Virus record (IMG/VR): IMGVR_UViG_3300026512_000014 | Span: 1 to 60,996 of that record | Direction: 5' to 3' (one strand) | DNA from: a virus | Lineage: Duplodnaviria > Caudoviricetes | DNA length: 60,996 bases | Shown here: piece after piece, positions 791 through 14,960 of the stretch | How positions within the stretch are numbered: position 1 is the first letter of the stretch | Layout of the letters: each line of letters opens with the position of its first letter | Made by a program: the position numbers and the translations under genes | The notes under the pieces: generated by a model | The model's input: the letters and a program-made list of their open reading frames with translations, nothing else | What the model was told of the DNA's origin: nothing | Database searches by the model: none

Positions 791-815
791 AACGGGACTG
801 ATAGAGTTACAACTA

Positions 816-1232
816 TTACGCCTTCTGCTTGGCTTTTTTCTTCAGCGAAACCTTGGCATCGGTTTTGACTTTCGGAACTGTTGCATTTACAGGAATACTT
901 TCGCCAAGCAGACTGGCTTTCAATTTGTTTCCAACTCTTCTGCGATACTCAAGCGTAGTTGGTTCTGCTTTGGTCACAGAAAGTTGATAAACGGTTTCTG
1001 AATACTCTTGGTTCTTTTCAGCAGGTTTGTTCCACGAATTCACTTCAATGGCAACATTATCCCATACTTGGCAAACCTGAACATTACCTTCAAACTTTGG
1101 CTTAAATTCATCAGTCAAGCCAAAAAGTTTGATAGGCTTGCCGATGGCAATAAGTTGGCCTTCGGCTTCAATTACCTGCTGAAAAGAAACCTTTGAAAGT
1201 TGAACAAGTTTAAAATTCGAATTAAGTATCAT
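816..1232 (-). CDS. Hypothetical protein, beta-rich with a Lys-rich C-terminal tail (possible nucleic-acid-binding protein)
   Basis: 138 aa with AAGGAG SD and its own terminator; ends KVSLKKKAKQKA. The function is a guess. Confidence 0.75.
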   Translation of the reverse strand: MILNSNFKLVQLSKVSFQQVIEAEGQLIAIGKPIKLFGLTDEFKPKFEGNVQVCQVWDNVAIEVNSWNKPAEKNQEYSETVYQLSVTKAEPTTLEYRRRVGNKLKASLLGESIPVNATVPKVKTDAKVSLKKKAKQKA

Positions 1233-1367
1233 AGGACACTCCTTAAAGTTTATTTAGCGCCGAAATCGACGCCATATATGAGTAGTCAATATTAAAATAA
1301 AGTTATAAATTGTGCAGATATATATTAAAGAAACCTGAATAAGTTTAAAAAAAAGAAAAGACGAAGG

Positions 1368-1416
1368 CGGGGATTTGTGAATACTCTCATATAGCAATCC
1401 CCGAACTATATGAGAG
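1368..1416 (-). promoter_or_regulatory. Predicted H-type RNA pseudoknot in the leader of ORF 816-1232
   Basis: Minus strand CTCTCATATAG-tt-CGGGGATT-g-CTATATGAGAG-tattcaca-AATCCCCG: perfect interleaved stems of 11 bp and 8 bp. Confidence 0.65.
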
Positions 1417-1756
1417 ATGAGGATAAAGGGAAGGAAAGCCTTCATTTATGAATAGTCAAGTATAAAACATAATTATAAGAAAACAAAAGAGTTATAAAAA
1501 AACGGGATTATATATATTCTTAATTCCATAATAATAACTATATTAATACCATATAATAATTAATAACACTATAAATAAAACTGCTATATTATTAAAACTA
1601 AACAACAAATATCTATCTCTAACATATAAAAGGACTTACACAAAAGCGGCTCTATTAATCTTTTATTCTTAATACTATTTTTCCTTACCAAATATATATA
1701 TAAATATAAAACAAAACTATATAAACACTATATAAATAATACACAACATTATAAAG

Positions 1757-1893
1757 TATCACATATAGCCATATACAACTATACAGTATCATACACAATC
1801 ATATACATACCATATACAATCATATATAGTGTCATATACAATCATATACAGTCATATACGGTCATATACATACTATATACAGTGTCATATACA
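1757..1893. repeat. Degenerate tandem repeat of ~10-12 bp units with core (G/A)TCATATACA
   Basis: For example gtcatataca atcatataca gtcatatacg gtcatataca at 1831-1870; about a dozen imperfect units in a non-coding, G-poor tract. Confidence 0.85.
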
Positions 1894-2410
1894 GGTGGTC
1901 ACACACGCCGCTAACGCTCAAGAAGGGACACATAAGAGAGAAACAACCAAATCAAAAACGGCATTATATACCAAACCACACACAATTACACACAACCACA
2001 CAGACAGCAACTCTCTGGTACCAAATATCTTTGGCCAACGGGCAAAAAGAAAGAAGAAAGAGAAAGGATACAAAGAGAAAGAAGAAAGAAAGACATATAC
2101 ACTCACACATACACTCGTATACACACATACTCACACAAACACAACCAACTGCAAACACGGCACACAATTTCATTTGTAATATAGTCCGTGAGCGGTATGC
2201 ATACAAATGAAATACAAATAATTATCTAATAATATGTATACATACATTCATATATACAGTTTTATCTATATATATCAACGTATATATACACTATAATGTA
2301 TAATATTTAAACATATAGTAATTAATAACAAAAAAATATCACAAAAATGCTTATTTTTATAACTATATTTAAAATCAATCACTTAGTTTTTTATTTCCTA
2401 TATAGAAAAT

Positions 2411-2446
2411 AAAAAGACACGGTGTACAATATATATACACCGTGCC
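2411..2446 (-). terminator. Intrinsic terminator after the polymerase-RNase H gene
   Basis: Minus strand GGCACGGTGTA-loop-TACACCGTGTC-TTTTT. Confidence 0.8.
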
Positions 2447-2471
2447 CTAAACTTAAAAAGTTAATAACTAA

Positions 2472-5400
2472 TTAAGACTCAAGATTGTCCTTAATAAGCC
2501 CCATAACCCGCTTACAATACTTGTCAGCCAGGTTATCTTTCCTTGGAATCTTAATTATGTCTATGTCAATGCGTTCATTAAGTGCATTAACAGTAGACAC
2601 ATAATGTTTAGTGATATCATTTTTGGCCTGCCATTCACCGGTAAGCCACTTGATAAGACCTTCATAGTCTACATAACAAGTGACTTTATCATAACCGTTA
2701 TCAATAGCAAACTTAATTGCCTCAATAACGGCCTGGCACTCACCAGCAACCTGTCTTGTATCAGAATCAACCTGTCCAAAATTAATATGGATAGTATCTT
2801 CCGATACATATGCCCAAAATGATTTACCGGGAATCTTATCAGTATAAGACCCGTCGCAATACATCTTTAACTCCATGTTTACCTCCAAATTAGAAAACTG
2901 GTAGGCCACATCATGCAGCCTACCATTTTCATTAAGGTTATTAAAATGCTCCACGAATATATTAACTATATTCTTTGGAGCAATACTAAAGAACGCACTA
3001 TCAGAAACCTTTGATGAGAGGAATGCCCAACAGACTTCCTCTTTAATACCAAGTTGCTTGGACAAGTTTCTGATATATCTATGGGTTTCTACACCAAGAG
3101 TATATATAGCCACGTTAACCAGCGATAATATCTCTTCTTCTCTATCAGATTCCACTCTTTTAACATAAGAAACCATCGACATGAAGAGATTGAACATCTG
3201 ACCAACAAGATAAAAACGTGGCCAATACTCTTTATTATTGGATAACTTGTTATACTGCTTTACAAGGCCGTTGGTATAAATCCAATCCTGATATATATAT
3301 CTATATGAGAAACCAACAACCTTGGAAGTCCATCTTGTGAATTTACCTCTGATGTCTTGTATATGAACTTCAGCAGTACCAAAGTCTTCATCAGACTTTA
3401 CAAGTTCTCCAAACCTTGTACACCACTTATGCAGAACAGACATATAATGTGCAAATAATTTATGAATCTGTTCCGTACCAGTAAATGCACTATACACACA
3501 AGAAAGTCTCCTCAAAGCAGAGATACTAATACCACGAAACTCCTTCAGTACAGCCCTAAATGTATCAACTTTCACAAATATTTTAGAGTTTTCAACATAA
3601 TAAATCTTCCTCACGAAAGCATCCACTCTGGCCTGTATCTCTGCCGGTGTAAGCAGACCCTCAATGTTCTTCTTCTGTGCATTAATAACCCCTTGTTGTT
3701 GAGCAAAGAGGAACTCAATGAGTTCATATGCTTCTTTAATCAACTTAGGGTTACGAAGAGGTTTAATGGGAATAACTCTGTCGCCTATTTGTACCTCTCC
3801 AGCACCAGTAAGAAAAGCATGTATCTGGTCTGCAAATCTTTCAACCATACCGATATGCGCATCATATTGTAAAGCAATAAACAAATGCAAATCGGATACG
3901 GTTTTAATGTAAGCAGGAACCTCAGGTAGTTTCACATGTGCAAGTGGCGCCACAGGACAACTCCTCAAGCACTTCAAAAACTCACCACTAAACAGGGTTA
4001 TATCATCACCATCAAAATCATGTCCACTCAACACCCTATGTGGCGCATTCATATGCATAAATGCAAAACTACCAAGGCCTTCATCATTAATAACAACATA
4101 CTCAGCAGGACAGTCTCCAGTGAAGGTAACTGGATTCTTATATACTCCTACCTTATATGCCCCATCTGCAACAGATGGTAAATCAAGACCGCTTACATTG
4201 GCAATGATGATTCTATCAATAGGATATAACTTCCTGCCAATATATACCCTTGCACCCTTGGTAATAAAACCAAGACCATGGATATATGCTTTAAAAGCAT
4301 CCATAGGCAAGGATGTAGCGGTACAAGTTGTACCTTTCTTTGTTGCAGACAAGTCGACAGTGAAGAGCCTGCGCACATAACCTTTAATAATAGTAGCAGC
4401 GTTGTCTTTGCGCAATACCTTTAAATTACCAGGCAATCCCATTTTAACTGCAACGCCATAAGGTGTAGAAATGCTGGCATTCTTTACAAGCAGGTCTATA
4501 TTGAATTTCGTATTGTCTCTCAACACCTCAACTGCTTTAGCATTATCGAAATTCCAATGATAGAACACGAACTGCTGCGACAACTGTGCACCTGCTTTAT
4601 AATCGGTATCAGTTTTCATCACCAGAAATTCATCTGGTGTGAAACTAAGCCCTTCCATATCCCCAACCAATGCATCTTGGTTGAGAATAATATCTGTCTT
4701 CTTCACCCATTTAGGACCAAGTCCCTCTGCAAGTTTCTCCCATACGGGTTCAGAAACTTCAACAAAAGTACCTTTGGCCCACAACTTGTTAGAAAAACTA
4801 ACAAGTGTGCCTTGAAAAGCAGTAAATGTATTAAACTTCGATGCTTTAGATAATCTCTTCAAGACACCTGGACGAAACCAAGCAACTACGCCGTCTGCTT
4901 CAGGAACACTGATAGCAGCGGCTTTAAGTTTTCTGTTCCCAACAAGAGGCATACCTTGCCTAAGCAAAAGTACACCAATCTTTGAGAACACCTTAAAATT
5001 TAAACTGCTGTTAATATAGTTGTCATTAACATAAGATATAATACCCATAACAGCAGCAACCTCACGAACCAAATCTTCAAGACGCATTTTCTTTGTTGTA
5101 TATATAATTCTGGATGCACCAGACTTGGGAGCAAATAATACTACTTGCTCAAGGTTTGTGTTATTAACAATTTTAAGTCCCTTTTCGGGTTTACCGCCAG
5201 ACAATACGTCAAGAACATTCCTGACTAAATCACGTCTGGTCAATAAATCCTTGTCAAGAGACTCATCATCCACCGCAATCTCAAAAGACAAGGTGTCAAG
5301 CATTAAATGCTTGAACTTATCATAATGCATATCCAAGACAGTTGGTCTATCCCAGATGTACCTTGTCTCTTCCGTGAGAGTATACTCCACATCATTTGTC

Positions 5401-5747
5401 CTCTCAATGACAATGAATCTTCTTTCGAAGATATCAAAGCCTTGAGAAGCAAACTTACGGATTGCTCTCTTGGAAAACCTCTGCCCTGCGATGAACGCAT
5501 ATGCCTGTTGTTGCAAATTAATATTTGTTATAACCTCAGGCAATGTTGCAGCGTTACACACTCTTGCGAGTTGTGCCGCTACTGCGAACCTCGCATAAGA
5601 GAAACGATTGATGAACCTGACCAATGTTGTTACAACCATCTTTGTAAGACGGCTGTTCTCTTCCTCTTTAGCAGAGTCGAGGAATGCGATAAACTTCCTT
5701 GCGAACTTGTTCATCGTATGGATTACAGAATCAATAAGATTCAACAT
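2472..5747 (-). CDS. Single-subunit double-psi-beta-barrel RNA polymerase (YonO / RNAi-RdRP-like) fused to a C-terminal RNase HI domain
   Basis: Polymerase motifs in the expected order: WAKGTF, VYKNPVTFTGD, SGHDFDGDD (DFDGDD at 4002-4019), HIG. The last ~134 aa carry RNase HI motifs YCDGS, VAGECQA, YVDYEGLIKWLTGEWQAKN, NLADKYC. Start moved from 5783 to the ATG at 5747, which has an AAGGAGGT SD. Confidence 0.85.
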   Translation of the reverse strand: MLNLIDSVIHTMNKFARKFIAFLDSAKEEENSRLTKMVVTTLVRFINRFSYARFAVAAQLARVCNAATLPEVITNINLQQQAYAFIAGQRFSKRAIRKFASQGFDIFERRFIVIERTNDVEYTLTEETRYIWDRPTVLDMHYDKFKHLMLDTLSFEIAVDDESLDKDLLTRRDLVRNVLDVLSGGKPEKGLKIVNNTNLEQVVLFAPKSGASRIIYTTKKMRLEDLVREVAAVMGIISYVNDNYINSSLNFKVFSKIGVLLLRQGMPLVGNRKLKAAAISVPEADGVVAWFRPGVLKRLSKASKFNTFTAFQGTLVSFSNKLWAKGTFVEVSEPVWEKLAEGLGPKWVKKTDIILNQDALVGDMEGLSFTPDEFLVMKTDTDYKAGAQLSQQFVFYHWNFDNAKAVEVLRDNTKFNIDLLVKNASISTPYGVAVKMGLPGNLKVLRKDNAATIIKGYVRRLFTVDLSATKKGTTCTATSLPMDAFKAYIHGLGFITKGARVYIGRKLYPIDRIIIANVSGLDLPSVADGAYKVGVYKNPVTFTGDCPAEYVVINDEGLGSFAFMHMNAPHRVLSGHDFDGDDITLFSGEFLKCLRSCPVAPLAHVKLPEVPAYIKTVSDLHLFIALQYDAHIGMVERFADQIHAFLTGAGEVQIGDRVIPIKPLRNPKLIKEAYELIEFLFAQQQGVINAQKKNIEGLLTPAEIQARVDAFVRKIYYVENSKIFVKVDTFRAVLKEFRGISISALRRLSCVYSAFTGTEQIHKLFAHYMSVLHKWCTRFGELVKSDEDFGTAEVHIQDIRGKFTRWTSKVVGFSYRYIYQDWIYTNGLVKQYNKLSNNKEYWPRFYLVGQMFNLFMSMVSYVKRVESDREEEILSLVNVAIYTLGVETHRYIRNLSKQLGIKEEVCWAFLSSKVSDSAFFSIAPKNIVNIFVEHFNNLNENGRLHDVAYQFSNLEVNMELKMYCDGSYTDKIPGKSFWAYVSEDTIHINFGQVDSDTRQVAGECQAVIEAIKFAIDNGYDKVTCYVDYEGLIKWLTGEWQAKNDITKHYVSTVNALNERIDIDIIKIPRKDNLADKYCKRVMGLIKDNLES

Positions 5748-5860
5748 TCCATACCTCCTTTCCTTCCCTCCGTTAATTACCATGACGCATAAGCGTCAAC
5801 CAACAACGCACAGTTGTTTTGTTCTCTATATCACCTCCTTTCAATAGAAATATTAGAGTT

Positions 5861-5912
5861 ATATATAACTCCACTATGTACTGCAATAACAGTACATAAC
5901 AGAATCATATAT
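5861..5912 (-). other. Long hairpin, 23-bp stem with G.U pairs
   Basis: Arms 5861-5883 and 5890-5912; every mismatch becomes G.U on the minus strand. Confidence 0.8.
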
Positions 5913-5935
5913 AAAAAAGGGGGCACAAAGCCCCC
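5913..5935 (-). terminator. Intrinsic terminator
   Basis: GGGGGC-tttgt-GCCCCC-TTTTTT. Confidence 0.9.
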
Positions 5936-5941
5936 ATCTAA

Positions 5942-6067
5942 TTAATCTAAATCAAATACATAACAAAGGTCATCGTAATAATCAGAAAGGTAAAGTAAAT
6001 TATTAAAATACGTATAAGACACACAAGTTTCCTGCAAATAATTAATTCTCTCCGAATTCCTTTTCAT
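5942..6067 (-). CDS. Small hypothetical protein (41 aa)
   Basis: GGAGG SD; MKRNSERINYLQETCVSYTYFNNLLYLSDYYDDLCYVFDLD; stop lies just before the terminator. Confidence 0.6.
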   Translation of the reverse strand: MKRNSERINYLQETCVSYTYFNNLLYLSDYYDDLCYVFDLD

Positions 6068-6084
6068 CCTTTCCTCCTTTTTAA

Positions 6085-6432
6085 TTAATCTAACCCTAAT
6101 AACATTTCGACAACAGAGTCACAAGGAACTCTATGCCTTTTACCACTAAAAATCCTCTCAAGAAACTGGCCTAATTTATGAATACCAATTCCTCCTAACT
6201 CCTCGGAACAGATATTAATCATATCTGCTCCTTCACGTACAATAGTTAATACACAATCAACATCATTGCTGTATAATACGCAATGACTATCATACTGCTC
6301 AACATGATTTCTAAATTCTTTATCGGTACCAATAAAATAATTGACACCATTATAAACCTGAAAATCAATGAGGTCCCCATTGGGAACCTCTTCTGTCAAC
6401 TCATACCTGTACACAAAAATCTTTTCAATCAT
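6085..6432 (-). CDS. Early hypothetical protein, acidic paralogue family
   Basis: AGGAGGT SD; KIFV..NGD..YFIGTDKEF..LERIFS..LLG, similar to 6453-7010 and 8742-9071. Confidence 0.85.
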   Translation of the reverse strand: MIEKIFVYRYELTEEVPNGDLIDFQVYNGVNYFIGTDKEFRNHVEQYDSHCVLYSNDVDCVLTIVREGADMINICSEELGGIGIHKLGQFLERIFSGKRHRVPCDSVVEMLLGLD

Positions 6433-6452
6433 AATTACCTCCTTTTAATTGA

Positions 6453-7010
6453 TTAATAAATAAACTCTTCTTTATGTACCCCTAATGCATCCGCAATTAA
6501 ATAATCAAGATTATACTCATATGCTTTATCGCTAAAAATGCGATACAAAACTTTCGCAATATCAGCAGCAGTTATATCATCAAGCCCATTATTATTAACC
6601 TTTTCCAATGCCTCTTTAACTGAAATTTGGAAAACAACTCTAAAATTTTCTTCAGGTATATCATTGACACTATCAACAATATACCAGCCCACTGCTACAA
6701 ATTCCTCTATATCACCATTGAAATGAGTCATCACACAATCCTGCTCAACAATAAAAATATTCTTAAATATAACAGACTCTTCTTCCACACTAACAAGTTC
6801 ATAAATATCATTCCCCAAGTCTTCAACCTCAACAATAGCGCTTGTATCTCTGTTACTATATGAAATTGTATCCTTAAAATCACAAACCACTCCAAGACAG
6901 TTAAATCCAAACTTAACTGAAAAAACAAATATTTTGTATTCATTATTCCCAAGTGGTACTGCAAAATATACGTCTCCTTCTTCAATCCATCCATTAAATT
7001 TCTTTTTCAT
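6453..7010 (-). CDS. Early hypothetical protein, acidic paralogue family with an extra N-terminal domain
   Basis: AAGGAG SD; C-terminal half NIFIV..NGD..ITAADIAKVLYRIFS..ALG. Confidence 0.85.
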   Translation of the reverse strand: MKKKFNGWIEEGDVYFAVPLGNNEYKIFVFSVKFGFNCLGVVCDFKDTISYSNRDTSAIVEVEDLGNDIYELVSVEEESVIFKNIFIVEQDCVMTHFNGDIEEFVAVGWYIVDSVNDIPEENFRVVFQISVKEALEKVNNNGLDDITAADIAKVLYRIFSDKAYEYNLDYLIADALGVHKEEFIY

Positions 7011-7099
7011 AACATACTCCTTTTTTAGTTTTTCAATTTAATTAGTTAATAACAAATCATCAACTCGCACCATTAATTCTTATTCCTATTACCTCCTTC

Positions 7100-7260
7100 C
7101 ATAAGTGCCACCTGACACGTGTTCATACACATGCACACATCAGTGTCAACTTATAATCGTACGTGTACGTGTACGTTATCTTCATAATGCAATGCTTACG
7201 TGTACTTAACAAATAACTTAAACATTGCAATCCTCTCAAAAACGAGGTAACGTACACGTC
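7100..7260 (-). ncRNA. Structured RNA element, copy 1 (unknown family)
   Basis: 12-bp closing stem (7167-7178 with 7248-7259) enclosing a CCTC/GAGG hairpin and a TGCAATG/CATTGCA hairpin, then a long hairpin at 7101-7154; homologous to 8424-8623. Confidence 0.65.
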
Positions 7261-7274
7261 ATAGAATTATAGAT

Positions 7275-7296
7275 AAAAAGGGGTCCCGAAGGGCCC
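7275..7296 (-). terminator. Intrinsic terminator with UUCG loop
   Basis: GGGCCC-TTCG-GGACCCC-TTTTT. Confidence 0.8.
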
Positions 7297-7318
7297 AACA
7301 GAAAATGCAAATTAATTA

Positions 7319-7450
7319 TTATTCTTCATGAAGTCCTAATGCTACTGCGACCAAATAGTCATAATAGCATTGATACCCATTGGAAAACATGTGCTCAAGC
7401 GCAATCACTATATTGGTCGCACTTGCTTCTTTCAAAGACTTTTCATCTTC
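7319..7450 (-). pseudogene. 3' remnant of an acidic paralogue family gene
   Basis: EDEKSLKEASATNIVIALEHMFSNGYQCYYDYLVAVALGLHEE* aligns with the C-terminus of 6453-7010 (ITAADIAKVLYRIFSDKAYEYNLDYLIADALGVHKEE); no SD-linked start. Confidence 0.7.
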
Positions 7451-7495
7451 TCTATATATCACTACTATCTATATATAATAATAATGATACACAAA
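7451..7495 (-). other. Long hairpin, 18-bp stem with G.U pairs
   Basis: Arms 7451-7468 and 7478-7495 pair fully on the minus strand when G.U is allowed. Confidence 0.65.
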
Positions 7496-7508
7496 TAAGA
7501 TATTAAAC

Positions 7509-7533
7509 AAAAAAAGGGGAGCAAACGCTCCCC
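7509..7533 (-). terminator. Intrinsic terminator
   Basis: GGGGAGC-gttt-GCTCCCC-TTTTTTT. Confidence 0.9.
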
Positions 7534-7538
7534 AAAAC

Positions 7539-7751
7539 TCAAATTCTTGTTACGGTTATGTCCACATGTTGCTCCTTGGCAACAGTGCAGACATAATTAA
7601 CAACATTAGTAAACATAAACTTGTCCAACTTATTGGACAAGTTATAAACAGAAACCACCTCAATTCCAATCTTTGAGGCCAACTTCTCGTTGACCTCAAC
7701 AACGGCCATCGTTCCCTTGATGACCGTAACATGACAATAATTATACTTCAT
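7539..7751 (-). CDS. Early hypothetical protein (70 aa)
   Basis: AGGAGGT SD; followed by a terminator. Confidence 0.8.
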   Translation of the reverse strand: MKYNYCHVTVIKGTMAVVEVNEKLASKIGIEVVSVYNLSNKLDKFMFTNVVNYVCTVAKEQHVDITVTRI

Positions 7752-7760
7752 AATAACCTC

Positions 7761-7931
7761 CTATAAAAATAATGCCGTCATTATGACGGCCATAATAATA
7801 ATTTCACGAAGCCCAAGTTCGGGCTCCTCAGGACCTGTTAATATCATGTTATTAACAACCTTGGCGGCCAATAAGGCCACCAAGAAAAACGCACAAAAAA
7901 TAAACAGATAAAATAAAATAACCGTTAACAT
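7761..7931 (-). CDS. Small membrane protein with two hydrophobic helices (56 aa)
   Basis: Not in the ORF track. MLTVILFYLFIFCAFFLVALLAAKVVNNMILTGPEEPELGLREIIIMAVIMTALFL*; TAATG coupling to the upstream gene; AAGGAGGTGA SD. Confidence 0.75.
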   Translation of the reverse strand: MLTVILFYLFIFCAFFLVALLAAKVVNNMILTGPEEPELGLREIIIMAVIMTALFL

Positions 7932-8131
7932 TACATCACCTCCTTTAAAAACTCTACGGCAGCAATATCACCGTAGAGTTTTTTAAGTTTTCTAACAGCA
8001 TCGACACGGTCATGTGCCGATACTACTGAGATGAATTCTGGTTCATCCCAGTTTACCCTAACCGCCACCACAAAAGTAATAGGAGTCAATAACAACTTCC
8101 TCATAACTTTGTCAATTAAAACATCTAACAT
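7931..8131 (-). CDS. Early hypothetical protein (66 aa)
   Basis: AGGAGGT SD; tightly packed operon. Confidence 0.8.
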   Translation of the reverse strand: MLDVLIDKVMRKLLLTPITFVVAVRVNWDEPEFISVVSAHDRVDAVRKLKKLYGDIAAVEFLKEVM

Positions 8132-8142
8132 AATACCTCCTC

Positions 8143-8346
8143 TTATAACTCTCTTACCAGGAAACCTCTCCTGGCAAGAGAATTTTTAATGGTTAATAAA
8201 TCACCACGCTCTTTCCTTATAACCCCTTTTCTGGGGTCATAAAGAGTCGCATACCCGTTAGCAACATTAAGAACAAGCAGCACCTTCAATTGGTGCTGCA
8301 AGTGTTTTGGAACCAAATCGGTCCAATGAATCTTTTTTTCACACAT
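8143..8346 (-). CDS. Early hypothetical basic protein (67 aa)
   Basis: AGGAGGTG SD precedes the ATG at 8346 (MCEKKIHW). Confidence 0.8.
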   Translation of the reverse strand: MCEKKIHWTDLVPKHLQHQLKVLLVLNVANGYATLYDPRKGVIRKERGDLLTIKNSLARRGFLVREL

Positions 8347-8423
8347 AGACACCTCCTAAAACTTAATAGGTTAATAAAACTAATTCCCTTACCGCACATC
8401 CTTTTTTCTTTATCACCTCCTTT

Positions 8424-8623
8424 CATAAGCGTCATCTGAGACACACTCATGCACACGCACACATCAGTGTTAACTTATAGTCATACGTGCACGTGCACGT
8501 TGTCTCCGTGATGCAATGCTTGCGTATACTTAAACAACTTGGGCATTGCAATCCCCTCAAAAACGGGGTTATTTTAATAAGCCCAATACGCAATCCTCTC
8601 ATAAACGAGGTAAACGTACACGC
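8424..8623 (-). ncRNA. Structured RNA element, copy 2, with an internal duplication of the small hairpin
   Basis: Colinear with 7100-7260; closing stem 8492-8501 with 8613-8622; contains both CCTCGTTTATGAGAGG and CCCCGTTTTTGAGGGG. Confidence 0.65.
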
Positions 8624-8634
8624 CAAGAGTTATA

Positions 8635-8698
8635 TATATAACTCCACTATATATCACCATATCAATTAAGATATAATGATACATAATGGAACTATATA
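8635..8698 (-). other. Long hairpin, 29-bp stem with G.U pairs
   Basis: Arms 8635-8663 and 8670-8698; shares ATAGTGGAGTTATATAT with the hairpin at 5861. Confidence 0.85.
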
Positions 8699-8701
8699 AA
8701 T

Positions 8702-8722
8702 AAAAAGGGGGCCGAAGCCCCC
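8702..8722 (-). terminator. Intrinsic terminator with UUCG loop
   Basis: GGGGGC-TTCG-GCCCCC-TTTTT. Confidence 0.9.
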
Positions 8723-8741
8723 AACAAAAAACACAAATTAA

Positions 8742-9071
8742 TTATGCACCTAAAACACCCAAAACATCATAAACATAAGGAGACATAATGTTTTGGTTCC
8801 ACGAGTTGCAAATAGCAATTGCAACTTGTGTCGCAGAAAAACCACTTGTTCTACTATTGTTATTAATTAACTCCATAACACTATCAACTCCTTTTTCAAA
8901 AACAATATTAAGAAGCGCATCATGTTCCTTATCAACATACGCTTCAAATTCTTCTTTTGTTCCTATAAACCAATCATAGGAACAAAAAGTATCTGTAATA
9001 ATAACATCACCATTCTCATCAACTTCGGTAATCCAATCTTCTACATAAAAAACAAAAATTTTCTTTTTCAT
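8742..9071 (-). CDS. Early hypothetical protein, acidic paralogue family
   Basis: AAGGAG SD; KIFVF..NGD..WFIGTKEEF..SATQVAIAI..VLG. Confidence 0.85.
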   Translation of the reverse strand: MKKKIFVFYVEDWITEVDENGDVIITDTFCSYDWFIGTKEEFEAYVDKEHDALLNIVFEKGVDSVMELINNNSRTSGFSATQVAIAICNSWNQNIMSPYVYDVLGVLGA

Positions 9072-9170
9072 AATAAATCTCCTTTTCCTCTTTTAATTTA
9101 TTCTGTTAATAAACCAAAAAACCAATAACCGCACATAATTAATATCTATCACCTCCCTTCTATATAAATA

Positions 9171-9231
9171 TTTACTTAATATCTTAATTATGTATTACCA
9201 AAAATAATACATAACTAAAACATTAAATAAA
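9171..9231 (-). other. Long hairpin, 27-bp stem with G.U pairs
   Basis: Arms 9171-9197 and 9205-9231; four mismatches, all G.U on the minus strand. Confidence 0.8.
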
Positions 9232-9250
9232 AAAGGGCCCCGAAGGGCCC
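9229..9250 (-). terminator. Intrinsic terminator with UUCG loop
   Basis: GGGCCC-TTCG-GGGCCC-TTTTTT. Confidence 0.9.
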
Positions 9251-9277
9251 AACGGAAATACTAATGTTAATAAAAAA

Positions 9278-9778
9278 TTATCTTAATTTTGCTGAATTTG
9301 CACCGCAAAATAAAGAAAGATGATTAATAACATACTTCTCATCGAGAACATCATAATGCTCCGATACACTGTGAATGAATTCACATTCACCTAAAAATTG
9401 TGCCCAATAAGTAGTTCCTCCGCTTTTACATTTTACATAGAGTCTGTTATCATCCTCAATCTTAATATCGTTCTCAATTCTTTGGATAAACTTATCATAT
9501 CTAACCGCAAATTTTGGGATAGTATGTCCAGGACTCCAAAGGTCTCCAGAAATTCTTTCCGAAATAATCACATACTCTCCCGTAGGGTCATATCCTACTG
9601 TACCATTACCAATTTCTCTGCAATCAATGTTTGACAAGCACATTATTTCGTGCTTGTTTGCGTCTTCAATTTTAATCTCGTCAGTCTGAGACAAATCTAT
9701 AAGATTTGTCCTGAAAATATTCTTCAACATTTTCTCTACTTTACCCGCATACTTTTCAATATAAAACACGCTTAACAT
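9278..9778 (-). CDS. Early hypothetical protein (166 aa), first gene of the leftward block
   Basis: AAGGAG SD; terminator downstream. Confidence 0.85.
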   Translation of the reverse strand: MLSVFYIEKYAGKVEKMLKNIFRTNLIDLSQTDEIKIEDANKHEIMCLSNIDCREIGNGTVGYDPTGEYVIISERISGDLWSPGHTIPKFAVRYDKFIQRIENDIKIEDDNRLYVKCKSGGTTYWAQFLGECEFIHSVSEHYDVLDEKYVINHLSLFCGANSAKLR

Positions 9779-9929
9779 AATAATCTCCTTTTTTTATTTT
9801 TTAGTATAAATATTTATATACCGCCTTATACCAGAGCGGTTAATAATAAAGTTAATATAAACAACCCCATGCCGCACATCTTTCTCTTTCTTATCACCTC
9901 CTTTCTTTCTGCCCATTTGGTTAATAACA

Positions 9930-9977
9930 CAGGGGGGGTGGGCAAATCCCCCTGGGACTCCACCTTTTGACGAGTCC
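9930..9977. other. GC-rich tandem hairpins at the divergence point
   Basis: CAGGGGG..CCCCCTG (9930-9954) abutting GGACTC..GAGTCC (9955-9977). Confidence 0.55.
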
Positions 9978-9978
9978 T

Positions 9979-10090
9979 ACACATATACCTCTGCTTCTGT
10001 TTGTGTATTCTTATATTTACACACATACTCCTATCTCTGCTTATGTTCACACATATACCTCTGCCTATATTTGCATACACCTCTATATCT
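9979..10090. repeat. Short imperfect direct repeats ACACATATACCTCTGC
   Basis: Exact copies near 9979 and 10048, with degenerate copies near 10021 and 10073. Confidence 0.7.
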
Positions 10091-10328
10091 TTGTGTTTTA
10101 TATTTTTATATTTTTTAAAAAAGAGTGCGGCATTTCCCTATATCCCCTTTCTTTTTTCCTTAAAAGTTGGTTTTAATATATTTCTCTTTGGTACCAAATA
10201 TAAACTTATATATAAAACATTTCCCCAAAGAAAAAAGGTTATAGAAAAAAGAAACATATGTTAATATATATATGTTGGTTATATATATTAACTGATTTAT
10301 TTTAAAAAAACATTCCACGGAGGTATTA

Positions 10329-10727
10329 ATGGTTAATTTAGAAGAAGTAAGGGACAATATTGTTATGGTACAGGTACTGGGTGGGCAGCCTATTATTGGT
10401 GTACTTGAAGACAGCAATGGTGTATATAATAATATGGATGCGATAGTGTTAAAATATGCTGTTATGTTTCAAACTCATATAGGTGAAGACAAACAAATGA
10501 GTTTTGTACCTGTTAAGTTAAGTAGTTTATGTAAAGAGGATGCTGAATATTTTATTAACAAAAGTCATATTATATTTATTACCGGTGATTTGGATGATGA
10601 AATTATTGATTACTATATTGATATGTTTAAGATATTAACAGGTGAATCAAGTTCGTCTTATGATGCTGATACTGCAGAAGAAGTTAAGGAAGATGATAAT
10701 ATTATTAAACTTAACAGTGAGAAATAA
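10329..10727 (+). CDS. Hypothetical protein (small beta-rich domain, acidic tail)
   Basis: GGAGGT SD; 132 aa. Confidence 0.8.
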   Translation: MVNLEEVRDNIVMVQVLGGQPIIGVLEDSNGVYNNMDAIVLKYAVMFQTHIGEDKQMSFVPVKLSSLCKEDAEYFINKSHIIFITGDLDDEIIDYYIDMFKILTGESSSSYDADTAEEVKEDDNIIKLNSEK

Positions 10728-10771
10728 TTATAATATATAGTTGAAAATGATTATGAGGAGTATATATATTA

Positions 10772-11392
10772 ATGGATAGATTCACGCCTGCAATAAATAA
10801 TCAAGGGATAACTGATAAGAATTACACTATATATAAATTCGGCACTGATGCCAAAATGTATATTGACGGGTTTTATATTAAAGAAGCAAATGCTATTATG
10901 TATAGAGAACATATAGACAGATTGCCTTACTTTGGTTATGACAGTCAATACTTTGATTATATATTAGAAGGCAGAAGTTATGTTTCAGGAACTATCGGAT
11001 TTAATGTATATACTCCTCAAGTATTTTATAAGATATTAAAAGCGCTTGGATATGATTATTATGTTTATAAAGAAAATAGCAAAGATAAAAGTCAATTAGA
11101 TGTATATTTTGATTCACAAGGTGAAGAAGAAATTATTGACATAATATTAAGTCAGGATTATAGTAAACCCAATGATGACTACGAAGATTTTACTTTACCG
11201 CCTAAATATTTTGATATTAGATTAGTAATACAAAATGAATTTGAAGAAATAGAACACGTGTTACTTATTAAAGATGTATATATATTAGGAATGCAAACTG
11301 CTTATAGTAAAGATGACCAGGTTATAGAGTTTTATAATTTTATTGCTAAAAGAATAAGTTCAACTGTTTATAAGGAGGGCGAATGGATATAG
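10772..11392 (+). CDS. Tail-tube-like virion protein
   Basis: Same pattern as 33409 and 34223 (G.D.K..., GR..VSGTI, FDI.., IKDV.I...Y.FIA). Confidence 0.6.
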   Translation: MDRFTPAINNQGITDKNYTIYKFGTDAKMYIDGFYIKEANAIMYREHIDRLPYFGYDSQYFDYILEGRSYVSGTIGFNVYTPQVFYKILKALGYDYYVYKENSKDKSQLDVYFDSQGEEEIIDIILSQDYSKPNDDYEDFTLPPKYFDIRLVIQNEFEEIEHVLLIKDVYILGMQTAYSKDDQVIEFYNFIAKRISSTVYKEGEWI

Positions 11393-12105
11393 TTCAAAAA
11401 GATATTTATGAAGAAATGATATTGAAAAGCAGAAGCATATATATTACAAATAATATTACAATGGAAAATATGATTGAAGCAAAATTATTATTTGATAGGT
11501 ATAGAATGTTAAGCAATAAAGCGCCTATTCATATATATATTAATAGTCCTGGTGGAGAAGTTAATGCCGCATTTATGCTTGTTAATGATATTGTCTTACA
11601 TGATGTTCCTGTAATCACATATAACATAGGAGAAGCGGATAGTGCAGCGTCATTTATATTTATAAGCGGTAATACAAGAATTATGTATCCTCATAGTTCT
11701 ATTATGATGCATTCAGTAAGGGCAAACCCATATGGCACCACTACTAATATTAAACAATATACAAGTTTTCTTCATAAACTTGATGAATATATAATTAAGT
11801 TTATTAAAACACATACATTGCTTGATGATGAAACCATACATGATATAGTTGTTAATAATAAGGAACATTATTGGGTTGGTGATGAAGCAATAGAATATGG
11901 TCTTGCAGACCAACTATATCTTGGAACTGATTTTGTAGAACCCATATGTTCTGATAGGTCTGAATTTCATTTTGCATATTTAATAGATGAAGAAAAAGAA
12001 AGTGGAGATAATAATAGAGCAAACAAATTAAGAGAGGAATATTATAATGTCTCAATTAAAAGACATAGCAAAATTAAAAAAAGAAATACTAAAAAAGACA
12101 AATAA
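11383..12105 (+). CDS. clpP: ClpP-family serine protease
   Basis: YINSPGG, GEADSAAS (catalytic Ser), IMMH (His), EAIEYGLAD. Confidence 0.9.
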   Translation: MDIVQKDIYEEMILKSRSIYITNNITMENMIEAKLLFDRYRMLSNKAPIHIYINSPGGEVNAAFMLVNDIVLHDVPVITYNIGEADSAASFIFISGNTRIMYPHSSIMMHSVRANPYGTTTNIKQYTSFLHKLDEYIIKFIKTHTLLDDETIHDIVVNNKEHYWVGDEAIEYGLADQLYLGTDFVEPICSDRSEFHFAYLIDEEKESGDNNRANKLREEYYNVSIKRHSKIKKRNTKKDK

Positions 12106-12796
12106 ATTTAATGCAAAAGAGGCTCTTTCAAATCTTGATAAGATAACGGAAGAGCCGTCTTTCCTTGATATAACAGAAGAAGAAAAAAATAATATTAAAA
12201 GAAAATTTGCAAGAATAAAACATGGCGCAAGTGTTAATACAATATTAATATGTCCAGGCAATGATAAATGTCCTCATTGGGAATCATGCCCATATAAAAA
12301 CATAAATGATTTTCACAAAATAATAGGACAGAAATGTCCTGTTGAAACTGAACTATTTGTTGAAATTGTTAAAAAAATGACAGAAGAATATGGGGTTGAA
12401 TCAACGGATTATATTGTATATAACCTTATATTGGAATATGCAGAACTTGAAATATTAGACATGAGAGTTAGTAATTATCTTGCTGACGCTAATAAAGGGA
12501 AACTTATTAAAAGAGAAATTACAGGTATGTCAGAACAAGGACCTATATTTGCAGATGAAATTAATAAGGCTCTTGATATTAAGAATAGTTTAAGTAATAG
12601 AAAAAAGAAAATACTTGATGAGATAATATTAACACCTAAGGGGAAAATTAAAGCAAGAAGTATAACCAAAGGTGTTGATAATGAATTGCAGAAGTATAAG
12701 GAATTCATTAAAACAATGGCTTCTAAATTTGTTGATACAAGCGAATCGCTTGAACTTAATGAAGTTATTGATGCAGAGATAATAGATGAAGAATGA
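12047..12796 (+). CDS. Cys-rich helical protein; possible terminase small subunit
   Basis: CPGNDKCPHWESCP...CPVE cluster, helical middle, acidic end. The TerS role is inferred from size and architecture only. Confidence 0.55.
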   Translation: MSQLKDIAKLKKEILKKTNKFNAKEALSNLDKITEEPSFLDITEEEKNNIKRKFARIKHGASVNTILICPGNDKCPHWESCPYKNINDFHKIIGQKCPVETELFVEIVKKMTEEYGVESTDYIVYNLILEYAELEILDMRVSNYLADANKGKLIKREITGMSEQGPIFADEINKALDIKNSLSNRKKKILDEIILTPKGKIKARSITKGVDNELQKYKEFIKTMASKFVDTSESLELNEVIDAEIIDEE

Positions 12797-14960
12797 TTTA
12801 TGGAAAAGGCTATTAGAATTTATTAATGAAATAAGCCGTGAAGGATACGATGTAAATAATATTGTGTCAAAAGCGGTTTCATTTGACTATGAAATTGTAA
12901 TTAAAGATATTAAAGAGTTAAACAAAACACATATTGCTGTTTCATTCGGTATGTCTAAAAGTACAGGTGAAAATGTACGTATATTGACACCTCAAATGCT
13001 TCTTGACACTGACAAGGGAATAAATGCATTATATAGAGAACAAAAGTTAGAAGAAATGTCTTTGTCAAGAGAAGATATTATTGTTAAGAGACGTATTAGA
13101 AAAACATTGTCTGAAAGATTTGATTATATGGTTAAAAAGAGTCGGTTAGATAATATAGATGAAATTGAAAAAATTTTGAAAGGTAAAGGGAAATATAATA
13201 TAGAAGAAATACATAAAGATGTTAAAGATATATTAAATTATTTTGATGAATCTGATTTTGCAAGAAAAATGTCACATGATGTTACATCTGATTTCGGTAT
13301 TGCTTATAGAAATATTAAAGAACTTGATGAACTTATCCAAGAATTTAAAGAAACTAAAAGTAGCGATGTAGCAAAACAAATTGCTAAAAGATTTAGTGTG
13401 TTTAATACAACAGAAGAACATGTTAATGCAATACTTGACATGTTTAATAACCAAATTATATCTGCACATAATATTAACTTTGATGCTAATTACTTATTTA
13501 ATATAGTAGAAAGTTATATTGAAATGCATGGACTTGATGAAACAAGTGATGTGGTCAAGAAATATAATAAAATGAAAGAGATATTTAAGAGGTCTCATAT
13601 TCCTGACATAGGTGATAAAATATTTACATCAGATATAAGTTATTATAAACCTATACTTGAAAAACAAATAGAATTACTTAAGGCAGCAAAAGGCGGAGAA
13701 CCTGTTGTAATAGATACACTTACATTTATGAGAAGTTTAATATCGTATTATACAAAAGGGGAAGTTGATGCATTAAGCGCAGGTTTTAAACTTGAAGATA
13801 TTGCAAGTATATTTTTTAATAAACAGGTTAAAGTGGATGCATTGCATAATGCAACTGTTGACGCAGAATTAACAGCAATGTTAACTGATTTATTCGTTGA
13901 TGAATTTGGCAGTAAAGAAATAAACACAGCAGAAGAAATGATTGAAGCAATTAAGGCAAATCCAAAACTTAATAGATTATTTTTACGTTTTATAGAAAAT
14001 ACAAAAACAATAAGCAATATTAATGCACTTATCAAATTATTTGATACAAGTGTTATATCAAATCCACAAGTGCTTAAAGCAATGGATTTATATATTACTG
14101 ATGTATCAAAAAGTACAATTACTGGATGGGAATTTGTTGCTGAAAAAATTAAAGGCAATAAAGAAGCAGAAGATATTATTAAAAATATACTTAACCAGGA
14201 AGGGTATAAAATAAATATAAAAAATATCCCCGAAGAATTAATGAATGAAATATATAAACAAAAACTTTACGAAATATTAAGACTTGACACAACCTCACCA
14301 GAGAAAATTGAAGAATGGATTAAAACAATTTCACAAATGGTTGGTGGTGAATATAATGTTAAAGTGTATGATACATTTCATATGGATATAAAGCGATTTC
14401 AGGAATGGCTTAAACAAAACAAAAAAATTTCATTTCATGAATTTATGTTAAATACAGAAAAGGAAGCAAGAGATACTGTTATAAGAGATTTTATTAAACA
14501 GGAAACAAATGCAAAAGTTGGTGGATTTGTAGATAAATCTGTCTATTCAATGAAAGAAATAGGAAAATTGCTTAAAGAAAACCCAGGGAAAACAGCACTT
14601 GCCGTTATGACAGTTGCACTGCTTGGGAGTGCATATTATACTATAACAAAAGATGAAGACGAAGTTGTAGCAGGTGAAGAAGAAGATAAATTATCATTTG
14701 TTGAAAAAAAGATTATAGAAAATAGAAATGAAAAATTTGATAAAGATTTATATAAACTTAAAAAAGAAGAAGAAAAAAATGCTGAATTATACGAGTTTTT
14801 AAGAACAGGCAAAGTGCAAGGCAACCCAGATGTTTTCTTTTATAAAATAAGACCAAGTGCAACATACTTAAAAACTCATAAGAAATATGCACGTATTGAC
14901 CCGATTAAAATATATAGAAAAAGAAATAGACATAAGTTTGTATACCCGGAGGAAATATAA
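12786..14960 (+). CDS. Large DEDDh 3'-5' exonuclease-domain protein with a C-terminal hydrophobic helix
   Basis: ExoI SFDYE, ExoII SAHNINFD, IDTL, ExoIII LHNATVDA; hydrophobic segment TALAVMTVALLGSAYY. Confidence 0.75.
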   Translation: MKNDLWKRLLEFINEISREGYDVNNIVSKAVSFDYEIVIKDIKELNKTHIAVSFGMSKSTGENVRILTPQMLLDTDKGINALYREQKLEEMSLSREDIIVKRRIRKTLSERFDYMVKKSRLDNIDEIEKILKGKGKYNIEEIHKDVKDILNYFDESDFARKMSHDVTSDFGIAYRNIKELDELIQEFKETKSSDVAKQIAKRFSVFNTTEEHVNAILDMFNNQIISAHNINFDANYLFNIVESYIEMHGLDETSDVVKKYNKMKEIFKRSHIPDIGDKIFTSDISYYKPILEKQIELLKAAKGGEPVVIDTLTFMRSLISYYTKGEVDALSAGFKLEDIASIFFNKQVKVDALHNATVDAELTAMLTDLFVDEFGSKEINTAEEMIEAIKANPKLNRLFLRFIENTKTISNINALIKLFDTSVISNPQVLKAMDLYITDVSKSTITGWEFVAEKIKGNKEAEDIIKNILNQEGYKINIKNIPEELMNEIYKQKLYEILRLDTTSPEKIEEWIKTISQMVGGEYNVKVYDTFHMDIKRFQEWLKQNKKISFHEFMLNTEKEARDTVIRDFIKQETNAKVGGFVDKSVYSMKEIGKLLKENPGKTALAVMTVALLGSAYYTITKDEDEVVAGEEEDKLSFVEKKIIENRNEKFDKDLYKLKKEEEKNAELYEFLRTGKVQGNPDVFFYKIRPSATYLKTHKKYARIDPIKIYRKRNRHKFVYPEEI

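Follow-up and report, generated by a model that had tools for sequence, protein, structure and literature searches.

The window analysed here is the whole 60,996-nt stretch of a Caudoviricetes virus record (IMG/VR record IMGVR_UViG_3300026512_000014), which is 41% complete and whose closest cultured TerL is that of Moorella phage MTATph1 (31.5%). Between positions 5,861 and 9,250, in what gene layout suggests is the early region, the minus strand carries five intrinsic terminators with 6–7 G/C pairs and 5–7 U; three of the five have UUCG loops. T1 (stem-loop 5935–5919, U-tract to 5913; 6-bp G/C stem, 5-nt loop) follows a 41-aa ORF (6067–5942), and T2 (stem-loop 7533–7516, U-tract to 7509; 7-bp stem, 4-nt loop) follows a four-gene block (8346–7539). 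T3 (stem-loop 8722–8707, U-tract to 8702) and T4 (stem-loop 9250–9235, U-tract to 9229) each have a 6-bp stem with a UUCG loop and lie after genes for proteins of 109 aa (9071–8742) and 166 aa (9778–9278), respectively. On the minus strand, all four are followed by a long hairpin (H1–H4) located between co-directional cistrons. The hairpin starts after a gap of 0–7 nt or within the U-tract itself, as do the 5' arms of H1 and H4. The first-pass annotation had described four such terminator and unbulged hairpin pairs as punctuating the region. All four pairs are present, but the pattern does not extend to a fifth terminator in the interval that had been overlooked: T5 (7296–7274, minus strand) has no long hairpin and is directly followed by a structured element, E1.

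Counted as continuous unbulged helices with G.U allowed, the minus-strand stems of H1 (5914–5859, loop of 4 nt), H2 (core 7495–7451, loop of 7 nt), H3 (core 8698–8635, loop of 6 nt) and H4 (9231–9171, loop of 3 nt) measure 26, 19, 29 and 29 bp. The lengths given previously (23, 18, 29 and 27 bp) were slightly low, except for that of H3. H2 has five extra pairs past a 1x1 mismatch (whole hairpin 7501–7445), and H3 gains three outer pairs (8702–8631), giving 24–32 A/U-rich pairs per hairpin. G.U pairs make up 24 of the 109 MFE pairs, exactly six per hairpin, with the G in the 5' arm twice and in the 3' arm four times in each. Within the continuous stems, these minus-strand G.U pairs are the only non-Watson-Crick pairs (24/24), as had been claimed; their plus-strand counterparts are C.A and unpaired.

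Fold energies of H1–H4 range from -21 to -33 kcal/mol for the minus strand, compared to -2 to -17 kcal/mol for the plus strand, and the terminator and hairpin units have minus-strand z-scores of -7.1 to -9.2. A 10.3-kb region around the hairpins contains five unbulged minus-strand stems of at least 19 bp (mean of 0.01 in 100 dinucleotide shuffles), and no plus-strand stem of at least 15 bp. Such stems are rare elsewhere, with three in 398 kb of unrelated loci and six in the 1.27 Mb of 80 TerL-related loci.

The inverted repeats could instead act as DNA, for instance as an operator or cruciform, or by signalling recombination or replication. They are intergenic, and rearrangement breakpoints described below fall at their bases. 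However, they are only ~80% palindromic at the DNA level, all 24 deviations are transitions that preserve pairing in minus-strand RNA (0 do the opposite), and a real perfect palindrome, with 0 G.U, exists elsewhere in the window (10260–10292). We regard a DNA-level role as exceedingly improbable. An N4-type hairpin promoter, which had also been suggested, is not supported. The N4 virion RNA polymerase likewise uses a hairpin motif repeated in the phage early region, but its promoters are short hairpins, with 5–7 bp and a 3-nt loop, that extrude from the template strand. The 19–29-bp stems here are intact on one strand only, the non-template, RNA-like one, and the 41%-complete record yielded no phage RNA polymerase.

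The four hairpins are paralogous, and the cassette proteins that accompany them have diverged to 31–32% identity. In a structure-based alignment of these four paralogs, which are not independent lineages, 12 of 20 aligned pair columns are variable, and in seven both sides have changed without loss of pairing. Inner-stem length also varies (4, 11, 10 and 5 bp across copies), by changes matched in both arms. Together, the compensatory changes and the 24/24 minus-strand G.U pairs support the earlier proposal of selection on transcript folding, not on a DNA palindrome. Judging by these features, H1–H4 are probably RNA elements whose helix would form only in minus-strand RNA that reads past the preceding intrinsic terminator.

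All four hairpins share a core in which UUAUGUA is paired with UAYAUAR, so the recogniser could be sequence-specific and something other than a general dsRNase. Accordingly, the hairpins might be bound rather than cut, by a phage-encoded dsRNA-binding or anti-termination factor (with nut/put-like loading ahead of the next terminator) or a polymerase, or might act as an exonuclease roadblock. Every hairpin precedes the next terminator, and two shorter hairpins inside the operon (8184–8147 and 7983–7947) lie immediately 5' of true SDs, suggesting a general hairpin-before-SD theme. H1–H4 are also predicted to stay folded at 60–70 °C. Together with the hydrothermal vent label of run X1, possibly the source, this fits a possibly thermophilic host; in the roadblock version, stem length would be due only to a hot host. 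Known nut and put elements, however, are short or bulged, unlike perfect helices of 26–29 bp, and a transcribed perfect helix this long would likely be cut in any RNase III host. In addition, searches of the window, which represents a 41% complete record, yielded neither a candidate binding protein nor a phage polymerase. Binding without cleavage therefore seems improbable, and anti-termination, one of the functions listed in the first-pass annotation, is possible but has no specific support.

A feature missed previously is the larger cassette into which the hairpins fit as a single module. The repeated order is a conserved trailer, the terminator, the hairpin, and a leader with a 13-nt, start-less SD-like tract. 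This tract recurs in five minus-strand leaders. L1 (5848–5744) contains the tract GAAAGGAGGTGAT (5842–5830), a TGTGCG motif and a TAATTAAC motif, ahead of the true SD and ATG of a 1091-aa gene. L4 (9166–9069) has the tract at 9160–9148, ATGTGCGG at 9136–9129 and TTATTAAC at 9112–9105, followed by a true SD and an ATG at 9071; L3 (8430–8343) has the tract at 8424–8412, ATGTGCGG, TTATTAAC at 8377–8370, and a true SD and ATG. In L2' (7100–7008), the tract GGAAGGAGGTAAT (7100–7088) is followed by GGTGCGA, TTATTAAC (7052–7045), a true SD and an ATG at 7010. The leader of the first cassette, L5 (9910–9776), has the same motifs, with the tract at 9905–9893, and no terminator or hairpin upstream.

RGGAGGTRAT tracts in the window are confined to the minus strand of the hairpin region (7/7). 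Those located 5–17 nt after H1 and H4 have their nearest start codon 15–22 nt further on, compared to start-codon spacings of 5 and 7 nt for true SDs with the same sequence. By analogy with the STAB-SD and SP82 polypurine elements, we infer that the SD-like tract is a decoy ribosome-binding site that would protect the 5' end. The complete layout, with the decoy SD directly after the hairpin, fits two of the four copies (H1 and H4). H3 is followed by a structured element, E2, and then by L3, with the decoy SD ~190 nt away. Downstream of H2 come a sigma-70-like site (7435–7407) and a 23-aa gene remnant, with no leader or decoy SD.

Near-identical relatives differ by rearrangements that had also gone unnoticed: their contigs part and join again at module edges. 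Of the 18 endpoints of the nine joints listed from contigs of runs X2–X4, 13 fall no more than ~10 nt from a leader motif, a terminator or trailer edge, or the base of a hairpin, as in 9172>7447, 8698>9231, and 9252>9864 (the last with 650 other letters in between). The joints come from metagenome contigs matched at 80% likeness; the shorter side of three of the nine has fewer than 30 letters, and such joints can be artefacts. Relatives show no substitutions in H2–H4 among the 40 of 49 rows listed, and one 3-nt deletion in the H2 loop.

These breakpoints are also consistent with a composite terminator-promoter like the PeSLs of T4-type phages, in which each unit is transcribed independently and the repeat houses its early promoter; the loop would supply the -35 and the base of the 3' arm the -10, leaving the 5' arm secondary. 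Like the units described here, PeSLs are conserved, repeated intergenic composites that include a G/C-rich terminator stem-loop and flank small ORFans, and close relatives differ at them by insertion, deletion or replacement. In PeSLs the stem-loop is located between the -35 and -10 boxes or overlaps them, and the motifs promote the shuffling of cassettes (PMC2839356, PMC4122927). The loop and 3' arm of H1 read TTGCAG-17 nt-TATAAC, and a TATAAY-TCT tract is common to the ends of H1 and H3 and to the stretch after the hairpin-less T5 (there TATAAT). A promoter 5' of the hairpin has no room, since the hairpins begin in the U-tract or no more than 7 nt from it. Whereas PeSLs carry a consensus sigma-70 promoter, our scan found no sigma-70-type site of at least 9/12 in the 3' arms of H1, H3 and H4, and promoter-like sites were not enriched (58, compared to 59.7 in shuffles). 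A consistent -35/-10 pair is absent from H2 and H4, and the conserved arm motifs are variably spaced (12–29 nt). PeSLs also lack a second long G.U hairpin and a decoy-SD leader, and the phage here is not T4-like. Finally, a DNA promoter leaves both the one-strand bias of the G.U mismatches (24/24) and the co-variation of the arms unexplained. While possible, a promoter repeat of this kind is in our judgement unlikely.

Among the functions suggested previously, an RNase III-type site fits best. RNase III substrates are helices of two turns or more, and H1–H4 are intercistronic helices of at least two turns with an SD-like 5' stabilizer tract downstream. Our leading interpretation, which we place just short of an even chance, is that H1–H4 are cleavage sites of a host RNase III-type endoribonuclease, insulating neighbouring messages in read-through RNA. 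In its favour are also the strand-specific pairing, the covariation, the module-edge breakpoints and the predicted folding at 60–70 °C. RNase III sites in B. subtilis are described as consistently paired duplexes whose distal box often contains U-G wobbles (bioRxiv 10.1101/2023.03.12.532304), and SP82 early RNA is a target of this enzyme (PMC4838370, citing Panganiban and Whiteley 1983). The narrow specificity reported for B. subtilis RNase III (PMC4838370) counts against cleavage. So does the apparent strength of the terminators, since transcripts made by the host polymerase might seldom extend into the hairpins. Further points against it are the hairpin-less T5, the lack of a decoy SD after H2, the ~190 nt that separate H3 from its decoy SD, and the core kept in all four copies, which may point to sequence-specific recognition.

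The hairpins could alternatively be precursors of small double-stranded or hairpin RNAs, acting as regulators or as decoys against host RNA-sensing defence. They have a pre-miRNA-like shape and occur in four diverged copies. In Rfam, no family matched them at threshold; for H3 the only hit was to a miRNA precursor model and fell below threshold (26 bits, compared to a gathering score of 88). The hairpins have no promoter or terminator of their own around them, and bacterial precedent is lacking. This option, also raised in the earlier annotation, is without specific support, and we consider it very unlikely.

Cleavage by an RNase III-type enzyme, the interpretation we favour, has several parallels. 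As at the T7 sites R0.3–R1.3, the hairpins lie between co-directional early cistrons, where T7 sites split a long transcript into messages. T7 early genes are not known to have terminators between them, however, and their RNase III sites have internal loops; here, the hairpins follow a strong intrinsic terminator, are unbulged and contain ~20% G.U. No sequence similarity to the T7 sites was found by blastn. In engineered constructs, T7 sites R0.5 and R1.1 have been put beside terminators as insulators, and RNase III sites flanking terminators insulate adjacent messages (PMC3643576).

The arrangement also resembles that of SP82 and SPO1, with a Firmicute-type phage early region in which a cleavage hairpin, here predicted, precedes an SD-like purine tract. 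In SP82/SPO1 this tract lends stability to the RNA that follows (Hue 1995, cited in PMC7509114 and PMC3997798), and an SD-like 5' stabilizer is reported in SP82 RNA (PMC7509114). Across the 14-kb SPO1 early module, no unbulged hairpin exceeds 19 bp and none follows the layout seen here, so H1–H4 are not homologous to the SP82/SPO1 site family. Start-less SD-like 5' stabilizers are established in Bacillus, where STAB-SDs (cryIIIA, ermC, SP82) place a strong SD-like tract without a usable start codon at the message front (PMC3997798). The tract here differs in being 13 nt long, present in five leaders, and directly behind a long hairpin in two. Finally, the proposed cleavage would deal specifically with read-through RNA, as happens in lambda sib retroregulation and in yeast Rnt1 fail-safe termination, where an RNase III hairpin is made only when transcription runs past a terminator. 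The lambda sib hairpin includes the terminator, and its cleavage has a destabilising effect on the gene upstream. In the present phage the long hairpin is distinct from the terminator hairpin, and the latter would be kept by the upstream RNA.

Transcription through the terminators, cleavage and stabilisation would combine as follows. Polymerase reaching a G/C-rich terminator would halt or continue. In RNA that reads through, the 24–32-pair helix would fold and be cut; its many G.U pairs leave the helix unbroken in RNA but the inverted repeat imperfect in DNA. The upstream message would retain its own terminator hairpin at its end, and the downstream message, at H1 and H4, would begin a few nucleotides ahead of the 13-nt start-less SD-like tract. 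The conserved modules (trailer, terminator, hairpin and leader) may also serve as homologous flanks for swapping ORFan cassettes between related phages.

Four intrinsic terminators on the minus strand (T1, 5935-5913; T2, 7533-7509; T3, 8722-8702; T4, 9250-9229) are each followed directly by a long, unbulged hairpin on the same strand, as the first-pass annotation had described. The continuous stem measures 26 bp in H1 (5914-5859), 19 bp in H2 (7495-7451), and 29 bp in both H3 (8698-8635) and H4 (9231-9171), so the lengths given in that annotation were a little short, while the hairpins themselves stand. H2 reaches 24 pairs (7501-7445) if a single 1x1 mismatch is allowed, and H3 has 32 over 8702-8631. 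H1, H3 and H4 begin within the U-tract of their terminator and H2 begins 7 nt past it. A fifth minus-strand terminator in the interval (T5, 7296-7274) has no hairpin.

The hairpins were compared with shuffled and natural background. Dinucleotide shuffling of the 10.3-kb region (100 replicates) gives on average 0.01 stems of at least 19 bp versus five observed, in line with the earlier proposal of selected folding. At a threshold of at least 12 bp, the minus strand of this region has 20 stems versus 1.76 in the shuffles; the plus strand has three, with none of at least 15 bp. Stems of at least 19 bp number three in 398 kb of unrelated phage and metagenome loci, and six in 1.27 Mb from 80 loci related through the large terminase (TerL), a set drawn from 26 aligned homologs at the top of a list of 120. 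No Rfam family matched anywhere in the window at gathering thresholds, and a search of 5600-10400 at E-values up to 1 returned four matches, all sub-threshold.

Each hairpin contains exactly six G.U pairs, with the G in the 5' arm in two and in the 3' arm in four, and their positions vary from copy to copy. As previously claimed, the continuous stems of H1-H4 have no other mismatch. On the plus strand the same positions become C.A, and predicted folding is correspondingly asymmetric: -27.7 (minus) versus -14.1 kcal/mol (plus) for H1, -21.2 versus -2.3 for H2, -33.4 versus -16.7 for H3, and -25.6 versus -8.2 for H4. A decaying DNA palindrome would show mismatches of every kind, with G.T equally common on both strands; this is contradicted by the finding that all 24 deviations are transitions that keep minus-strand pairing. 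That the elements act as palindromes at the DNA level is hence barely credible, and the true perfect palindrome at 10260-10292 (13 bp) has no G.U pair at all. The earlier suggestion of an N4-type hairpin promoter also fails. N4 promoters are short hairpins on the template strand, with a 5-7 bp stem and a 3-nt loop, whereas the stems here are 19-29 bp and C.A mismatches disrupt pairing on the template (plus) strand. A phage RNA polymerase was not matched among the large ORFs of this record, which is about 41% complete.

The four terminator-hairpin modules share 60% mean column identity and a common core, UUAUGUA paired with UAYAUAR, and H1-H4 are paralogs. Pair ladders were anchored on this core, and pair columns were counted if present in at least three copies. 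Of 20 such columns, 12 are variable and seven show two-sided changes with pairing retained, figures to be read with the caveats that the anchoring relies on the structure itself, that the copies are paralogs within one genome, and that A-U to U-A flips come easily in A/T-rich sequence. The stem between core and loop measures 4, 11, 10 and 5 bp in H1, H2, H3 and H4, indicating insertions matched on both arms. Proteins of the flanking cassettes are also paralogs and share only 31-32% identity, so the helices have been kept perfect through deep divergence. Taken as structure and selection on the RNA-like strand, rather than on a DNA palindrome, the case is solid.

The motif UACAUA lies in the 3' arms of H1 (5883-5878) and H4 (9193-9188) on the minus strand, buried in the helix, and is replaced by UAUAUA in H2 and H3; a Bacillus subtilis study gives UACAUA as the cutting motif of EndoA, a MazF-type toxin (bioRxiv 10.1101/2023.03.12.532304). 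Two further transcript-strand hairpins with G.U pairs, at 8184-8147 (17 bp) and 7983-7947 (15 bp) on the minus strand, stand directly upstream of true Shine-Dalgarno (SD) sequences of genes within a four-gene block, and suggest a general hairpin-before-SD theme.

On the plus strand of the record (60,996 bp, 30% G+C), a structural module of myovirus type extends from 10,329 rightwards, with terminase, portal, major head and tail sheath genes. The minus strand, leftwards of about 10,300, encodes small ORFans without a family and a 1091-aa protein (2472-5747, minus strand) whose only recognisable domain is a C-terminal RNase H-like one. A homolog search of 5.8 billion proteins with this protein returned itself alone; comparison with solved structures gave the RNase H-like match only, and no relative for the 1856-aa and 1305-aa ORFs. 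From this gene layout we infer that the interval is the early region. In the divergent intergenic region, three 38-nt direct repeats (family D6, 9979-10086) and the palindrome at 10260-10292 may mark the main early promoter or operator. A long non-coding stretch 3' of the 1091-aa gene (1760-1900 and 1960-2200, minus strand) holds about 12 iteron-like TGTATATGA repeats, followed by GT-rich and then CT-rich tracts, and may be an origin or regulatory region. No tRNA genes were found in the window.

Judged by large terminase, Moorella phage MTATph1 is the nearest cultured phage (31.5% identity). Among the TerL relatives listed, the next is 61% identical and the remainder 41% or less. The large terminase gene lies at 16453-18300, and the cluster of the identical TerL is reported on a 151,978-bp contig; public assemblies therefore probably include a near-complete genome of this phage. 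SD sequences in the window are long and strong, one possible source run (X1) is labelled hydrothermal vent metagenome, and the host is plausibly Firmicute-like and may be thermophilic. In a thermophile, the unusual length of the hairpins could be explained by stability at high temperature, as H1-H4 are predicted to fold at -15 to -4 kcal/mol at 60-70 C. A C(UUCG)G tetraloop caps three of the five terminators (8716-8713, 9244-9241 and 7290-7287, minus strand). This tetraloop is especially stable, and its presence would fit a hot habitat.

The terminators and hairpins belong to a larger repeated cassette. Upstream of the terminators is a conserved trailer (repeat families D2-D4, 66-82% identity), and downstream is a leader that occurs five times, with SD-like tracts at 5842, 7100, 8424, 9160 and 9905. 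In each leader an SD-like tract of 13 nt, GAAAGGAGGTGAT or close to it, is followed by the motifs TGTGCGG and TTATTAAC and then by a true SD and ATG; TTATTAAC occurs 23 times in the window versus 9.2 expected. All seven copies of RGGAGGTRAT in the window fall within this region and on its minus strand. Two of these serve as true SDs, 5 and 7 nt before the ATG of 115- and 56-aa ORFs. The remaining five are separated by 15-22 nt from the first start codon, which opens an ORF of only 11-37 aa, so that all five leaders carry a strong SD-like tract with no start codon at working distance, as in STAB-SD stabilizers. No common secondary structure of the five leaders was predicted (0 pairs). The placement of this purine tract relative to the hairpins can be compared with SP82/SPO1-type stabilizers: it lies within 5-17 nt of H1 and H4, about 190 nt past H3, beyond a structured element (E2), and is absent at H2. 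H2 is followed by a sigma-70-like site, TTGAAA-17-TATAGT (7435-7407), and a 23-aa paralog remnant. The hairpin-less T5 is followed by E1, a sister of E2, and then by the SD-like tract.

E1 (7268-7101) and E2 (8630-8425), both on the minus strand between terminator or hairpin and leader, are about 170-190 nt long and 81% identical. Their consensus fold has 37 pairs, four of them altered on both sides between the two copies, and neither has an Rfam match. The loose end of a contig from run X2 is a third variant of this element in a relative. The (A)TGTGCGG leader motif opens the tiny ORFs of 11-37 aa, 15-22 nt past the decoy SD (9136-9098, 8397-8284, 9881-9828, 7073-7038 and 5811-5773, minus strand); three begin M-C-G and are hydrophobic, and these ORFs may encode leader peptides instead of representing just an RNA motif. 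The 23-aa ORF downstream of H2 (7390-7319, minus strand) ends like the C-terminus of a 185-aa protein (6453-7010), which is why it looks like a paralog remnant. A contig from run X4 has about 495 nt in place of the window's 142 at this point, and the relative it represents may retain an intact gene.

Our leading reading, held with slightly less than even confidence, is that H1-H4 serve as RNase III-type processing or insulator sites. With the hairpins beginning within the U-tract or shortly behind it, no promoter could fit between terminator and hairpin, so the RNA helix would arise only in read-through transcripts. At 24-32 pairs, a perfect helix has the canonical size of an RNase III substrate, and H1-H4 provide at least about two helical turns of double-stranded RNA on the minus strand (24-32 MFE pairs; continuous stems of 19-29 bp). 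T7 early RNase III sites carry an internal loop or bulge, whereas the H1-H4 stems are unbulged. RNase III sites of B. subtilis lie in duplexes that are consistently paired, and U-G wobble is common in the distal box (bioRxiv 10.1101/2023.03.12.532304). Transcripts escaping T1-T4 would be cut within the helix by a double-strand-specific RNase; the upstream RNA would retain its own terminator hairpin, and after a cut at H1 or H4 the downstream RNA would begin a few nt before the start-less SD tract. Start-less tracts of this kind stabilise the 5' ends of Bacillus mRNAs (PMC3997798), SD-like 5' stabilisation is reported in SP82 RNA (PMC7509114), and SP82 early RNA has been identified as a target of B. 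subtilis RNase III (PMC4838370). The many G.U pairs would, in addition, keep the DNA repeat imperfect.

Several points weigh against RNase III-type processing. The terminators look strong, which should limit read-through, and the full layout of hairpin and then decoy SD is present in only two of the four copies. The conserved core, as a sequence feature, hints at specific recognition. An unlikely alternative is that the repeat contains a promoter like that of the PeSLs, the promoter-early stem-loop cassettes: H1 contains TTGCAG-17-TATAAC, and a TATAAY-TCT tract is common to H1, H3 and the T5 unit. However, these motifs are inconsistent across copies and leave the G.U pattern unexplained. A consensus scan also found no sigma-70 site of at least 9/12 in the 3' arms of H1, H3 or H4 and no enrichment of such sites, the only matches in the cassettes being at 7506-7478 (5' arm of H2) and at 7435-7407, downstream of H2. 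We regard it as distinctly unlikely that the hairpins are bound by a protein or polymerase, or act as a roadblock. That they are small-RNA precursors is very improbable.

Searches for relatives of the region gave little. No match was obtained by blastn of 5700-9500 against the phages collection, and no related locus was found with a 1103-aa protein and the capsid protein. In viral_contigs, a DNA pattern for the leader had 9 matches, one for the E element 20, and one for the arm shared by H1 and H3 10, all coding or chance; in metagenome_contigs the leader pattern had five, all chance. The repeated terminator-plus-hairpin arrangement is found in none of the 80 TerL-related loci (seven stems of at least 17 bp in 1.27 Mb), and the last 50 kb of MTATph1 contain no stem of at least 17 bp. 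Two isolated look-alikes occur in distant TerL relatives: in locus L103 (22297-22339, minus strand) a G/C hairpin is followed at once by a 19-bp G.U hairpin, and in L107 (11330-11377, plus strand) a 22-bp G.U hairpin stands directly before an SD and ATG. In SPO1 (positions 1-14000) the longest unbulged stem, 19 bp, is itself a terminator and none lies behind a terminator, unlike H1-H4.

Logan contigs from four DNA sequencing runs (X2, X3, X4 and X6) were placed on the window at 80% likeness. Near-identical strains are present in X2-X4, which come from one study, and in X6. Among 40 of 49 rows shown, H2, H3 and H4 have no substitutions, and H1 is barely covered; X3 and X4 have one 3-nt deletion at the H2 loop. 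Nine contig joints are listed, and by our reading 13 of their 18 endpoints fall within about 10 nt of a module edge, although joints at less than 95% likeness or with fewer than 30 nt per side are unreliable and three of the nine have sides of 20-29 nt. These endpoints lie at hairpin bases (7447, 7451, 8698, 9172, 9231), at leader motifs (8378, 9117, 9127, and 9864 twice) and at the edges of terminators, trailers or stops (7305, 8744, 9252). One contig carries 650 other nt in place of the segment from T4 to leader L5, a cassette swap, and another has H2 joined to leader L4. As read from these sequences, there is moderate evidence that the conserved modules are sites of cassette exchange.

Exchange of cassettes at conserved motifs is described for the PeSLs of T4-type phages (PMC2839356; PMC4122927). 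Like PeSLs, the present motif is repeated and conserved, has a G/C-rich intergenic terminator stem-loop, and flanks ORFans whose proteins have no family; the consensus sigma-70 early promoter of PeSLs was not found in it. A further, improbable proposal is that the terminator, with its perfect G.U hairpin and decoy SD, makes up a modular fail-safe insulator of natural origin for ORFan cassettes. RNA escaping the terminator would be cut by a double-strand-specific RNase, so that all cassettes would share defined 3' and 5' ends next to any neighbor, permitting free shuffling between phages. In a bolder variant of this proposal, the excised 25-30-bp duplexes would themselves act as functional small RNAs, or as decoys against host RNA-sensing defence. 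The cassette resembles RNase III punctuation (T7, SP82), STAB-SD stabilizers and PeSL shuffling and by sequence is a member of none of them; in the literature searched, no description of this combination was found.

The elements are short (about 180 nt). Engineers have set T7 RNase III sites beside terminators for insulation (PMC3643576). If our reading is true, this phage does naturally what synthetic biologists build, placing an RNase III site beside a terminator to insulate neighboring genes at the RNA level, and shields the new 5' end with a decoy ribosome-binding site. Intrinsic termination, double-strand-specific processing and SD-mediated 5' stabilisation, mechanisms mostly studied separately, would thus be joined in one portable cassette, itself linked to the modular shuffling of genes in phages distant from the PeSL-bearing T4-type lineage.
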